Made by a program: the position numbers and the translations under genes
NCBI GenBank assembly: GCA_951406725.2
Contig: OX597821.1
Coordinates: 40,114,001 to 40,178,000, forward strand
Length of the DNA stretch: 64,000 nt
Source: Octopus vulgaris
Lineage: Eukaryota
Direction: 5' to 3'
Shown here: piece after piece, positions 10,466-57,003 of the stretch
Numbering within the stretch: position 1 is the first letter of the stretch
Layout: each line of letters opens with the position of its first letter
The notes under the pieces: generated by a model
Told to the model about the DNA's origin: nothing
The model's database searches: none
The model's input: only the letters and a program-made list of their open reading frames with translations

Positions 10466-10995
10466 TACAAAATTAAGAGGAATGACCACCAAAGTGGACA
10501 CCTAATATGCTAAACATAGACGTCAAATCACCATTACCATGAAGAATGTGTTCTTAAGGAAAATCTCAGCAAAACGCCAAAATGTAAAAATGAGCAAGAC
10601 AGATGAAAACATATGAAATAAAAACAATTGCCTACGTACCAATGGTTTCACTTGTTAATATCTACGTATCCAAACACGCAGATATCTGCAAGATCGTCAG
10701 TGTAGTCTGTCGCTTACAAAACACAATTTCCAGAACTAGATACAGAATGCTCAGAAATTATCATTTGTCTTCCTCGTTTTTACATTTTGGCGTTTTGCTG
10801 AGATTTTTCTTGAGAACACATTCTTCATGGTATTAGCGATTTGACGTCTATATTTAGCATATTAGGTATCCACGTTAGTGGTCATTCCTCTTAATTTTGT
10901 ATGTAACACAATTTTTAATCTTTGGATTTTTTAAAAATATGCCACACCACTTGTTTTAATTGATAGATATTAATTCCTACCCTTATTCTTTAGTA
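10466..10995. mobile_element. Fold-back non-coding element: 141-bp inverted arms (10466-10606 / 10761-10901) around a hammerhead-bearing loop; putative Penelope-like pLTR derivative
   Basis: Arms are imperfect reverse complements (tacaaaattaagaggaatgaccac.. / ..gtggtcattcctcttaattttgta); flanked by (TA)n on both sides. Confidence 0.75.
10632..10705 (-). ncRNA. Type I hammerhead ribozyme motif
   Basis: Minus strand reads CUACA-CUGACGA-[UCUUG..long hairpin..CAAGU]-GAAA-CCAUUG-GUA-CGUAG; intact CUGANGA/GAAA core and GUA triplet. Confidence 0.75.
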
Positions 10996-12169
10996 CATAC
11001 ATACATATATATATATATATATATATATATATATATATATATAACTTTATAATATGTTTGTGTGTGTTTTGCTAAAATGTGAATCCAGCAAAAAGCAAAT
11101 TGTTTTATTTGTGAATTAACTGGGAACTGCAGAAGCCTGCTTGCATTGCTTATTATAAACCTGCACTTAGAGGGAAGTGTATTGATACAAAATATATAAA
11201 CTGAAATGGGCAATAACAGTTTTGTGGCGATGGTGGTGGTCATGATGATGATGATGATGAGGAGGAGGAGGAGGAGGAGGAGGAGGAGGAATGAATAGAT
11301 AGAAGAAGTAGAATACAATATTGAAAAAAGACAGAAAATATCTATTACAAGTTCAAACAGTAAAGTAAAACAAAAGATAATTTGATAGATAGACTGATAG
11401 ATAGATGGATAGAAGACGATTATGACAGGTTGGTGGTGGTGGTGGTGGTAGGGGATTATGAAATAAGAGTGAAGATAAAAGGGAAATAAATTGATGAGGG
11501 TTTCCCAGAAGGACAACAGCCCATAAGTACGGTAGGTAAGTGCAGCCAAAAATTAAATGATATGAAAAGGAGTTGGGAGATTGCACAAACAGAGACACAC
11601 AGGAATATATGTGTGCAACACACACACACACTGACTAGCACACATACACACACAAACTCACTTATATAAGTAAATATATGAGCTTATATATATATACACA
11701 CATACACATCTATATATACACATACGTTTTATACATATATATACATACCCACACACACATAAATACTCTCGCTTATATAAGAAAATGTATGTGCTTATAT
11801 ATATATAGAAATACACACATACACATCTATATATACACATACATTTTATACATATATGTACATACACACACATATATATACATATATACACATATATGTA
11901 TTTGTGTGTGCCTCTGTGTGTGTACTTGCATATTATAATGTATTCTTGGGAACTAGTTGAGTTAATAAATTAGAGCGACCTTTCCACCATTTTGTTGCAT
12001 TACAATGTGATACTACACATACTCATACACACAGTGTGTGTCTTTAATATGTTTGTAATATGACAGTTGCCAACACTTTATCCCTGTATATCAATACAAT
12101 ATCATCATAAAAAGAAACGGAGCCAGGAATCATTGGTTCAATACTGTATTGGTATTTTATTTGTGACTT

Positions 12170-12671
12170 GGTCAGCCTGTAATGACATGCATAAGATCTG
12201 GTCATCAAATCTAAGTAGAGACTTCAAACTTGAAATCTTCAAAGCCACAGTTGAACCAATTCTACTATATGGCTCAGAAACCTGGACGTTATCAAAGAGG
12301 CTTGAGAGGTGGTTGGATGGAACCTACACTCGCCTCCTTATGAGAGCTCAAAATCTCTTGTGGAAGCGCCATCCAACCAAAATGCATATATATGGGAAAC
12401 TACCAACTGTGTCATCTCTTGTGAAAGGTAGGAGAGTCCAGTTTGCTGGACATTGTTGTAGAGCTGAAAAAGAGGTAATTTCTTCTCTCCTCCTCTGGAA
12501 GCCATCTACTCGCAATGCGAGAGGGCACACACTCTCCTACCCTGATGTAATCTCCAGTGATACAGGCATCCAGCAACAGGACCTCTGTAATGCCATGATG
12601 GACCGTGAAGTCTGGCGTAGCATGGTAAATTCCATTGTCTCGACCACGGTCGAACAATGATGATGATGATG
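12170..12671 (+). pseudogene. 5'-truncated RTE-type LINE 3' end with (TGA)n tail and 11-bp target-site duplication
   Basis: Open frame KIWSSNLSRDFKLEIFKATVEPILLYGSETWTL..RRVQFAGHC..MMDREVWR; TSD atttgtgactt at 12159-12169 and 12672-12682. Confidence 0.92.
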
Positions 12672-13034
12672 ATTTGTGACTTTTCAATGTTCATACAGAC
12701 ATTGCTTATCTAATCACTATTACAAAGGACTTATGAAAATTTAGGTTGACTGATTTGCATATTACAAAACACATTTTCGAATTTAATTTGATAAATTATT
12801 GGCGTCAATAAAAGCTATTACTCAATAGCAAAGTCAAACCTTGCTGTTAAATCAGTGATCTGCAGGTTTTACCGATGTCAATTCACTGATGTGATCAAGT
12901 AGTGAGTGAAATGTTGAATGATGGCATTGCCAAAGTAATCATTTATGGTCAGCTTGCTACAGTGGATGGTCTTTTGGGGCACTATCAAAGCAATATTAAG
13001 TGTCCCTTGGGTGAAATCTGAAGATGCGTCGTGG

Positions 13035-13315
13035 TCATCATCGTCATCATCATCATCCTCATTTAATGTCTGCTTTCCATGTGGACATGGGTTAGAAAGT
13101 TTGACAGGAACTGGCAAGCCAGGGAACTGCATCAGGTTCCGGTCTGATTTGCTTTGGTTTCTACAGCTGGATACCATTTCTAATGCTAATCACTTCATGG
13201 AGTGTGGTTGGTGCTTTTATGTGTCACCAGCACAGAAGCTGTTGAGTGTCACTGGCACCAGCCACAATTACGGCATGGAAAACGGACTTTAGATGATGGT
13301 GATGGTGATGATGAT
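13035..13315 (-). mobile_element. Family C repeat on minus strand, followed by a short plus-strand tail piece
   Basis: (cat)n..tttaatgtctgctttccatg..tttctacagctggatacc, then ggcatggaaaacggac..gatgatggtgat. Confidence 0.75.
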
Positions 13316-13620
13316 CTATAAATATATGTGTGTATGTATGATTGCATTAATTTATCAGCAGTAATTAAGCATGAATCTGTATTTCTATTTCTGAAAAAGT
13401 CATTTGTGAGAAATAAATGGAAAAATCTCCCTCCTACATCAAGCCACATATTAAGAAGACAATCATAATTAAGACAGAAATCTGAGAATTAAATAACAAA
13501 ATCAATTAAAGGTTTTTAAAATTTTCTATAAAATTTTTTCGTAATTTCATGCAGTTGTTGAAATGCTAAATCTAACAACAAAATTTTATTGTTTTTTATG
13601 TTTTGGTGCTCAACAATTGT

Positions 13621-54697: not shown

Positions 54698-55866
54698 TTA
54701 ATAATAATAATAATAATAATAATAATAATAATAATAATAATAATAATAATAATAATAATAATAATAATAGTAATCCCAACAACAACAATATTTCAGTGTA
54801 ATCTGAATTGAGCATAATCTCCTCTAATCTAGAATTATGTGAGTATTAAAGTGAGAAGGTTCTATCAACAACTGCTGAGATCTTTGGTTCTAAAGAAAAG
54901 TCAAGAAATAAACTGTTCGTCACACTTGTACGTGATTAAAGATTATTGATGGTTGGTCAGTCGGTTTATCCTACTTTATCAGCAGGTAAAACAAAAACAA
55001 AAAACATGCATATATTATATACACAGAACTGTGTTTATTAATAATGGTATTAACTTGGACTCTTAGAATTGAATTTGCAGGTTCTACAGAATCAAATGGC
55101 CTTAATTAACATTGTTGAAGCTAAACTGATTTAGTGACTCTCTCTCCATGTCAGTCCTCGAATTTTCATTTTGTCTGCTGTGGTCTTACACGATGTTCAT
55201 TAAAACAAAGGCAAACATAGCTTTTTTTTTTTGTTTTTTCAGTGTTGTTGATGTTGATGTTCATAGATGTAATATGGCTGAATGGTTTAAAAGTTTGTTT
55301 CACAACCATGAGATTCCTGGTTCAATCCAACTGCATGGCACCTTAAGTAAATGTAATTTTTTATATTCTCAGGGTCAGCTCATATCATGTAAGTGAAATG
55401 GGGGTAGATTGAAACTGTACTGAAGCTTATCAGATGAATTTTATATATATTTCAAAATGTACAGCCTTGTTACACACTGAGTCATACTAATTCTGCTTGA
55501 GAACAACGTTAAGGGTACAACATGTCTGTGCAGTAATCAGACCCTTACATGTTTATTCATTTGAACAAGCAACAGAGATCTCGTTGTTGAATGATAGACA
55601 CCCACTACTTCACATATATTGCAATGATTGAGGCTGAAATTGAAGAAGTACCTGAAACAACTAGCTTCGTGGTTCACATTCCATGTCACCTCTTCACTAC
55701 CTCAAGTCAAAAGACTTGAATTTCATTAGATTTTTACGACTATTTGTAGAATCACCACAACTTGTGGAAGGAAGAATAGTAGTTGTGTTTAGACCAGGAA
55801 CCTGATCCAAATACTCACAACAAGGTCGACATAACTAAAGGCACTGACGACCACCAGGTGGGGCTC

Positions 55867-56090
55867 TTAACTCTTTTGTTAACATATTTCAGTTGAAATT
55901 CACAGACTTCGTTTCAACTAAGAAATATTGAAGAATTTATGAAAATAACTTCATTTTTATCAAGCTAGGACTTGCAGCATATATTAGCATGTATTTTTAA
56001 TGGAAGCCTTTAATTACTATCACCTAAAAACAGAAAGTTTATGTCATAGAAGCAGGGTAGTTTCAAGGGGGTTGGTATAAAAAAGGTCTC
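55867..56090. mobile_element. Probable TTAA-type MITE (decayed)
   Basis: ttaactcttttgtta ... ggtataaaaaaggt; termini imperfect. Confidence 0.4.
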
Positions 56091-56229
56091 ATTAAGTGTT
56101 ACATCAGTGGTTCCCAAACTTTTCACAGCAGTTTCAAACAGTGGATCCCAACACTTTTATTTAAATGTGTTTTTCCATGGATCCCTTTCAATATACTTAT
56201 CCTTATTTATATGTATATATATATTTTTT

Positions 56230-56420
56230 GCCAAGATAGATCGCTAGCCACTACAAATTGTTTATTTTCTCTCCTTGTTTCTTTTTGGGTTCCTTTCTGT
56301 GAAAGAGCGTAGGTTCGAAACATTAAAGAATTTTTCACTTCCCGAGTGTTATACTAATACATCTATTTGTTGTCTACACCACCTGTCTTCATCTTTTGTT
56401 TTTTCGTGAATTCTTCCCTA
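56230..56420 (+). mobile_element. Short repeat with degenerate hammerhead-like motif (putative pLTR fragment)
   Basis: cttt-ctgtgaa-agagcgtaggttc-gaaacatt-aaag; homologous to 63210-63355 and 4340-4495. Confidence 0.55.
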
Positions 56421-56534
56421 CATATATATATATATATATATATATATATATATACACACACACACATATATAATATATATACATATGTATATATATATAT
56501 ATATATATATATATATATATATATATATGTATAT

Positions 56535-57003
56535 AATTTCAATTAAATCAACAGTTTATATTTGCTGCTGATAAGTTGGCGCAATTACGGTGGATTTTGA
56601 AAATTTAGAGTATATATTCCCGAGGCACCGAGGCTGCTGCCTCGTCAATATTTATTCCTCCTGGCTTCTTTGCCGATGAGACGAGCCATTGGTAGATTGA
56701 CTTGATTAAATTTAATTTAATTTAATTAGGCTGGTTTGCCATAAAGTATGTCGAAACAATGCATTGTCCAAAGATAAATAGGGTAAATGTTTTTTAATTT
56801 TCCTTTGATTTCTGAATTACTACTATTTAGCGGTTTGAGTCTTGGCTGCTCTTTCTAGTGAGTCGAATGGCCTATCGGGGCCGTTCCTCAATATTGTTGA
56901 AATTATATATATATATAGTCTGTGACTATTTTCTCTTTCTCACTAGACCGCTGGTGGCGAAAAAATTTCTATTGAATTTTTTGCTACCCTTATATTGATT
57001 AAT
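56535..57003 (+). mobile_element. Hammerhead-bearing non-coding element between (TA)n tracts (putative Penelope-like pLTR or retrozyme-like)
   Basis: Contains the HHR at 56667-56774; its 3' ~200 bp is homologous to the reverse complement of 53235-53440. Confidence 0.75.
56667..56774 (+). ncRNA. Type I hammerhead ribozyme motif (U4C variant), predicted GUC cleavage after 56768
   Basis: UCUUUG-CCGAUGA-GAC[long hairpin]GUC-GAAA-CAAUGCAUU-GUC-CAAAGA; 6-bp stem I, G10.1-C11.1 closing pair, palindromic stem III ACAAUGCAUUGU. Confidence 0.8.

Follow-up and report, generated by a model that had tools for sequence, protein, structure and literature searches.

Decayed type I hammerhead motifs in several non-coding repeat families of Octopus vulgaris with Penelope-like insertion features

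Hammerhead motifs in an AT-rich region of the octopus genome

In this study, a 64,000-nt stretch of the Octopus vulgaris genome (assembly GCA_951406725.2, contig OX597821.1, positions 40,114,001 to 40,178,000 of the forward strand) was analyzed; this whole stretch is referred to as the window and all coordinates are counted from its first letter. It is AT-rich animal DNA (GC 25-41%), dense in microsatellites, and it contains short repeat modules with type I hammerhead ribozyme motifs. These modules are best read, with a probability of about 0.65, as decayed copies of several unrelated non-coding families bearing such motifs, likely copied into (TA)n by the reverse transcriptase (RT) and endonuclease of a Penelope-like element (PLE), the family of modules M56 and M53 being of the retrozyme type. 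The modules are named by position (M10, M38, M45, M53 and M56) and the copies of a fifth hammerhead-like type are designated a, b and c. The hammerhead motifs are as follows:

10632-10705 (core to stem III 10700-10637), minus strand: M10 hammerhead, with a consensus core, a stem II of 44 nt folded as one long hairpin and a 9-nt near-palindromic stem III
38553-38635 (38632-38556), minus strand: M38 hammerhead, with C3U, G8 kept without the matching G8A, a stem I of 3 bp, a stem II of 58 nt and an 8-nt palindromic stem III
45943-45976 (45943-45972), plus strand: M45 partial hammerhead, with a U4C core, a stem II of 3 bp with a 4-nt loop and a 9-nt near-palindromic stem III
56667-56774 (56673-56768), plus strand: M56 hammerhead, with all three helices, a stem I of 6 bp, U4C, G10.1-C11.1 and C17
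4340-4487, minus strand: copy a of the fifth type, minimal and hammerhead-like, with A6U, an additional base after A9 and a stem II of 4 bp; decayed
56276-56422, plus strand: copy b of the fifth type, with (TA)n at its end
63208-63358, plus strand: copy c of the fifth type, whose end lacks a TA tract

A preliminary description of the region, made from the sequence alone, had assigned a type I core to each of four modules. A combination of core, GAAA and palindrome is indeed present in all four, but the consensus core is confined to M10, which has mismatches in stems I and II. Stem III is self-complementary in the four modules, as had been noted (ACCA-U-UGGU and ACUC-U-GAGU are among its forms). 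The three degenerate copies of the fifth type were also recovered (4346-4487 on the minus strand, 56276-56414 and 63208-63348 on the plus strand), but the consensus ACGU attributed to them is read in none: they have ACAT, ACAT and ATGT, and ACGU may represent the state before CpG decay.

Two descriptors were applied to the window. The strict one, which required stems I and II and a palindromic stem III of at least 4 pairs, gave 2 matches (M56, 56673-56768, plus strand; M38, 38632-38556, minus strand) versus a mean of 0.05, and none of 60 block shuffles reached 2. The relaxed one, in which stems I and II were dropped and which was designed after the modules had been seen, returned exactly the four modules (mean 0.07 and maximum 2 in 200 shuffles), so that the motif density is above that of shuffled sequence. 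The Rfam hammerhead models yielded no match at the gathering threshold in the window, and the 150 matches listed out of 294 in an E-value scan were microRNA models on microsatellites, with no hammerhead among those listed. As regards Rfam, the set may thus be called under-annotated, as had been supposed; the proposed density of about one motif per 10 kb holds when all seven decayed motifs are counted, but not otherwise.

The modules had been described as dissimilar outside the motif, and no primary-sequence kinship among the four was revealed by 66 pairwise tests of 12 segments; clear alignments were restricted to the M10 arms, the pair M53/M56 and copies a, b and c of the fifth type. An apparent kinship between M38 and M56, through an alignment of their AT-rich stems II, was discarded as not significant versus local-composition shuffles.

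Another type I hammerhead-like motif lies at 40537-40587 on the plus strand (stem I of 6 bp, stem II of 5 bp, G8A core); it is present in one copy, has no adjacent TA tract and folds no better than shuffles. At 14640-14680 on the minus strand, a core-like word with G8C is followed by GAAA and an 11-nt near-palindrome, with TA tracts on both sides and without stem I, which is possibly a sixth decayed type.

State and predicted folding of the hammerheads

The consensus core (C3 U4 G5 A6 N7 G8 A9, G12 A13 A14 A15, U16 H17) is found in one of the seven copies (M10). Three closing helices are present in M56 and, weakly, in M38; the mismatches of M10 border the core within stems I and II (1.1-2.1 and 10.1-11.1), stem I is absent from M45, which lacks its 5' strand, and position 6 is a U in all three fifth-type copies. 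Variants with U4C or with changes at position 6 are described as natural, but slower or less active (Perreault et al. 2011, PMC3088659). The predicted cut is between 10637 and 10636 in M10 and between 56768 and 56769 in M56.

A long stem II, which the preliminary description did not mention, is common to M10 (44 nt), M38 (58 nt) and M56 (73 nt). In the last of these it consists of a 4-bp base and a hairpin of ~24 bp, and stem III is a perfect 12-nt palindrome. Compared with shuffles, stem II folds as an extended hairpin in M56 (z -3.16) and M10 (z -2.26) and as a weak AT-rich hairpin in M38 (z +0.76); for M45 and the fifth type, folding did not exceed that of shuffled sequence, and M56 is structured as a whole (z -4.25). 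Stem III is predicted at +0.4 to +2.4 kcal/mol as a monomer hairpin and at -7.9 to -15.1 kcal/mol as a self-duplex, and the predicted value for the M56 dimer is -70.1, compared with -58.8 for two free monomers.

Organization of the modules and their end words

Read in the RNA sense, the modules follow one order: the hammerhead, 130-170 nt, a small hairpin with a shared word, the inner end, a tail of 85-100 nt, a second shared word and the outer end. The features concerned are:

10466-10750, minus strand: M10 inverted copy, the hammerhead followed by a 155-nt arm reaching the inner (proximal) end, where (TA)n is fused to it
10751-10993, plus strand: M10 direct copy, a 5'-truncated arm to ~10901, then a tail of 85-90 nt, then (TACA)/(TA)n
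10880-10889, plus strand: proximal-end word, with a small tetraloop hairpin just before it
10977-10986, plus strand: distal-end word ctacccttat, exact
38355-38800 (5' limit uncertain), minus strand: M38 module, with the hammerhead, a TTCCTC-like word at 38487-38499, an inner TA run, a tail of ~100 nt and a variant distal word at 38360-38369
45890-45942, minus strand: left part of M45, directly after (TA)n, with a stretch that matches 45974-45999 at 19 of 26 positions (p 0.035, uncorrected)
53236-53562, strand not assigned: M53 fold-back of the M56 family, a minus copy with a tail to the distal word at 53244-53253 and a plus inverted copy that ends at the proximal site in (TA)n
56533-57003, plus strand: M56, an uninverted copy of ~463 nt with both end sites, between two (TA)n tracts
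56608-56657, plus strand: upstream hairpin of M56 (z -2.43)
56953-56988, plus strand: terminal hairpin of M56, overlapping the distal word at 56984-56993

The proximal word has 4 exact matches in the window, all within the arms of M10 and M53 (besides that listed, 10478-10487 and 53358-53367 on the minus strand and 53538-53547 on the plus strand), and a variant at 56879-56892; the hairpin that precedes it shows a two-sided change between M56 and M53 with the pairing kept. The distal word ctacccttat occurs exactly three times in the window, as reported before, but it is common to two families and not to three, because M53 and M56 are one family: M53 is a 5'-truncated relative of M56 (79% over 217 nt) without a hammerhead. 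M10 and M53 share two colinear 10-mers with at least 4 G/C, which was seen in none of 25,181 random window segments. Looser forms of both words stand in the same order in M38, a weak match made by eye; neither the proximal word nor this variant distal word of M38 had been noted before, and the left part of M45 may be an inverted 3' piece that took the place of the 5' strand of stem I.

Long inverted repeats had been claimed for two families and were found at 10462-10616/10751-10905 (155 nt, 89%) and 53337-53446/53459-53568 (110 nt, 98%). In both M10 and M53 the fold-back is a head-to-head pair of copies, one stopping at the inner end and the other at the outer end, with a one-sided tail of 85-100 nt. 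The hammerhead of M10 is on the minus strand and its distal word on the plus strand, a conflict that is resolved if the fold-back is made of two copies joined head to head. The position of the modules beside TA tracts was confirmed: for 9 of 13 module ends a (TA)6+ tract is found no more than 30 nt away (for four it is not), compared with 6.3% of the window, and the same is true for 5 of the 7 ends that are fixed by homology and not by the tract. As had also been stated, the modules carry no open reading frame (ORF), their sense-strand frames being broken by stops throughout, and no Pfam match was obtained in the module frames scanned.

All three truncated, hammerhead-free arms (10751, 53446 and 53449-53459) start 3' of the predicted cut, at a distance of 20-32 nt, and look as if copied from cleaved RNA; they come from two loci only, and inversion joints in the public sequencing runs described below also fall upstream of the cut.

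Probable Penelope-type insertion and the proposed mechanism

Inverted 5'-truncated copies, a one-sided tail and AT-rich or microsatellite targets with no clear target-site duplication fit the published signature of PLEs, and this makes the link to Penelope stronger than the preliminary description had argued. According to Craig et al. 2021 (PMC8557442), PLE insertions comprise an inverted 5'-truncated copy, a tail of 30-40 nt at one end and a bias toward microsatellites. Two internal RT start sites, together with cleavage of AT-rich DNA, explain such insertions in the case of the anole element Poseidon (Frangieh et al. 2024, PMC11167929). PLEs account for 6.83% of the O. vulgaris genome and are represented there by 190 families (PMC13282606, supplement).

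By analogy, the inner and outer ends of the modules would be two internal start sites of reverse transcription, at which copying began on the two strands nicked in an AT-rich target; the pair of shared words would serve as recognition signals for the same PLE protein. This protein would bind near the shared words, nick (TA)n and start reverse transcription at the inner or the outer site, giving rise to head-to-head copies. The M56/M53 family would provide a non-autonomous, retrozyme-type template and, because the copy at 56.5 kb spans the predicted cut, this RNA would have existed as a multimer left uncut or a religated circle when copied. The palindromic stem III is predicted to pair between neighbouring units, which would promote the cleavage of tandem transcripts and the release of monomers. 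The other families may be of the same kind or may be truncated pseudo-long terminal repeats (pLTRs) of autonomous PLEs.

A different machinery was also considered, in which the modules are passengers resembling short interspersed nuclear elements (SINEs) and moved by RTE, R4/Dong or CR1 long interspersed nuclear elements (LINEs), or are DNA fold-backs resembling miniature inverted-repeat transposable elements, in either case carrying the hammerhead as cargo. The window does contain LINE fragments with zf-RVT and relatives of the restriction-like endonuclease type as well as long inverted repeats, and LINEs were left open as partners by Cervera and de la Pena 2020 (PMC7229834). Such an origin is nevertheless quite improbable, since the arms vary in length between copies, are 5'-truncated from the same unit and have a one-sided tail, while inversion joints were seen at five distinct positions, in contrast to terminal inverted repeats of a fixed kind, and self-comparison of the window revealed no 3' end common to the modules and the LINE fragments.

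The M56 family in public sequencing runs

Four public runs were aligned to 56530-57003, with short contigs at 80% likeness; variants are given from the 40 rows listed out of 96. The family was represented by 1226, 639, 182 and 381 records, with 30 of 30 bins covered in each run; M56/M53 is a high-copy family. In four contigs of run X1, position 57003 is joined to 56541 via four different 24-nt linkers, and in a fifth 57000 is joined to 56552, a similar linker being found as a loose end in X2. The unit measures about 476-487 nt (~490 nt), of which the window copy represents ~95%, and it has no room for an ORF, because the outer end meets the module start within 24-27 nt. No contig among the four runs spans two hammerheads, and five opposite-strand joints, at different places, were found in contigs of these runs. 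The earlier designation of the modules as non-autonomous is accordingly retained for the M56/M53 family, with its end-to-start joints and its unit of ~490 nt, whereas for the other families an origin as truncated 3' ends of autonomous PLEs is just as possible.

It could be argued that all modules, M56 included, are 5'-truncated 3' ends of pLTRs from autonomous PLEs, that no non-autonomous family exists and that the joints arose by partial tandem insertion. We consider this unlikely. It would agree with the report that most genomic PLE hammerheads are single and thought to be remnants of truncated PLEs (PMC4209133), with the abundance of PLEs in this genome, with the lack of a unit length for M10, M38, M45 and the fifth type, and with the far deeper coverage of the M56 3' part than of its hammerhead part in all four runs (coverage is not a copy number). 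In the five X1 contigs, however, the outer end leads to its own start across diverged linkers that leave no space for an ORF, and an ATG inside the M56 core opens 9 codons only.

Some of the variants bear on the ribozyme fold. T56749C, present in nearly all of the depth in all four runs, converts a G-U pair of M56 stem II into G-C, C56769T and A56710G keep their pairs as wobbles, and T56693A breaks one pair. In one X10 contig, A56758G and T56765C occur together and the stem III palindrome is kept; one X9 contig shows the second change. C56628T and G56632T, the two commonest family variants within the upstream hairpin of M56, make 56625-56634 self-complementary, a possible second dimer contact.

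These variants also speak to the view that the hammerhead look is incidental, that is, that chance motifs or long-dead relics lie in AT-rich repeats of families in which catalysis was never selected. Every copy has a defect, Rfam detects none, the descriptors were tuned after inspection, and M38, M45 and the fifth type fold like shuffled sequence. Still, four matches were obtained where 0.07 were expected, the changes in the M56 family restore or keep pairs and preserve the palindrome through two-sided change, and the same place in the same anatomy recurs across unrelated families, which makes an incidental origin highly improbable.

No RNA-typed runs holding the M56 family are on record, and the 182 records of X9 were not taken as transcription, the RNA nature of this run being a guess. 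Pattern scans for further copies found none in metagenome contigs, viral contigs or prokaryote genomes; these collections are not animal genomes, and the zero therefore says nothing on copy number.

Evaluation of the proposed origin

Several results weigh against decayed, PLE-copied hammerhead families as the explanation. None of the seven copies passes the strict filter of PMC3088659, and M38 folds no better than shuffles. At 85-100 nt, the tails exceed the published 30-40 nt by a factor of two to three. A search for Penelope RT or GIY-YIG ORFs, proposed earlier as a check, found no such domain among the 300 of 327 window frames scanned (at least 50 unmasked residues). Homology to a named PLE was likewise not found in short-motif searches, the hammerhead and terminal words being unmatched in the Naiad/Chlamys/Hydra supplement, where line breaks can hide matches. 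The end-to-start joint of M56 is tabulated in one of the four runs, with 35-nt sides and possible repeat artefacts, and the 64-kb window contains no tandem M56 pair. None of the 39 variant positions listed falls among the 23 positions of the core and stem III, a sparing that does not reach significance (p 0.13). Furthermore, in the one PLE tested, that of the anole, insertion in vitro did not require cleavage by the hammerhead, and there were no RNA reads with an end at the cut (PMC11167929), and one of nine Xenopus (frog) retrozyme dimers cleaved.

Because no copy passes the strict filter and defects are found in all, the genomic hammerhead copies are probably relics, and activity must therefore be asked of the family consensus. 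Judged by their sequence, the modules appear to work like the pLTR of a PLE or like a non-LTR retrozyme; membership in either is not established, because the window lacks the expected ORFs and six of the seven copies depart from the strict core. The more specific proposal of an unrecognised hammerhead class with a long stem II, carried by several short non-autonomous RNA parasites that share two start-site signals of one Penelope RT, with the 56.5-kb family as a retrozyme derived from a circle or multimer, is tentative and in our estimation has clearly less than even odds.

A link to Naiad PLEs via their 'half cores' suggested itself, since these elements prefer (TA)n and a 'half core' is marked in an octopus family, but it was abandoned: the motifs are unmatched in the supplement, and the displayed 3' end of Naiad_Obim has no likeness to the modules by eye. 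The inner word has one chance match in the Naiad supplement, in a coding-like stretch.

Comparison with known systems

Hammerheads in pLTRs, the palindromic stem III, the family diversity of PLE hammerheads, mollusc retrozymes and the PLE origin of retrozymes are already published. The sequence diversity and the palindromes highlighted in the preliminary description are thus real but not new, both being reported for PLE hammerheads (PMC4209133). Like the octopus motifs, the latter have type I topology and a palindromic stem III, of up to 10 nt in Aedes and Saccoglossus; they belong to many divergent families within a genome and occur mostly singly, with pairs on opposite strands as well. Except at position 6, the fifth type agrees with the minimal consensus of the same source (U-rich 5' flank, base added after A9, G10.1-C11.1, AU-rich 3' flank). 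Compared with these PLE hammerheads, the modules differ in the length of stem II (44, 58 and 73 nt versus ~10-22 nt in the table rows consulted), the 12-nt palindrome of M56, U4C in two families, A6U in one and the absence of an adjoining RT/GIY-YIG ORF.

Metazoan non-LTR retrozymes (Cervera and de la Pena 2020, PMC7229834; Li, Clavereau and Pollet 2026, 10.64898/2026.07.22.740005) are likewise short, non-coding, AT-rich and structured, with one type I hammerhead, head-to-tail joints and dispersed monomers, and are proposed to be non-autonomous PLE derivatives. The M56 unit of ~490 nt is above the 170-400 nt of the former study and inside the 51-972 of the latter. Unlike retrozymes, the modules form no array in the window and are known here from the window and from contigs, not from circular RNA; moreover, the M56 family has a PLE-type inversion with a tail, which is not described for retrozymes in the available parts of these two sources.

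Poseidon of Anolis carolinensis (PMC11167929) is similar in having a hammerhead upstream of two RT starts that bound an optional tail, a stem-loop at the start region and an AT-rich target, but it is autonomous, its ORF begins in stem II and its tail is 30-40 nt, compared with 85-100 nt here. Naiads (PMC8557442) share the (TA)n bias, the inverted truncated copies and the tails; some, an octopus family included, have 'half cores' 35-50 nt apart, and Naiads lack canonical hammerheads. Searches of the literature brought up no description of hammerheads with a long stem II or of any from cephalopods, but the survey of PLE variants by Lunse, Weinberg and Breaker 2017 could already cover a long stem II and U4C/A6U.

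Other repeats in the window

Self-comparison revealed SINE-like families with 5-10 copies per 64 kb, and fragments of non-LTR retrotransposons and of a mariner-type transposase were also found. The non-LTR fragments were identified by zf-RVT, DUF6451 and RT-bearing invertebrate relatives; among the named matches of the protein search, the relatives of the LINE fragments, at 53-61%, are marine invertebrates. A weak match to an ASC channel (57813-58001, E 0.024), with no evident exon, was dropped. These repeats are:

5437-5833, 17212-17850, 35000-35399, 57357-57740 and 61269-62201: examples of the SINE-like families
8960-9518 (minus), 49122-49484 (minus), 12064-12657 (plus), 52778-53077 (minus) and 22594-22752 (minus): non-LTR retrotransposon and mariner-type transposase fragments
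24578-24699/25405-25524 and 25027-25270/25663-25918: old and diverged local duplications without a hammerhead motif

Significance of the modules

If the cores prove inactive, the modules are ordinary Penelope debris. Long-stem-II hammerheads escape Rfam as well as short-spacer descriptors (spacers of 7-17 nt are given in PMC8557442), and for this reason the ribozymes of repeat-rich invertebrate genomes may have been undercounted. Animal retrozymes have been proposed to be moved by PLEs on the basis of co-occurrence and pLTR homology. A retrozyme-sized unit with the two-site tail and inversion of Penelope, and with end signals common to unrelated families, offers defined RNA templates for an in vitro PLE assay (PMC11167929). 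Should the tentative proposal of shared start-site signals be true, the modules would supply direct structural evidence for the mobilization of retrozymes by PLEs and would name the RNA signals involved.

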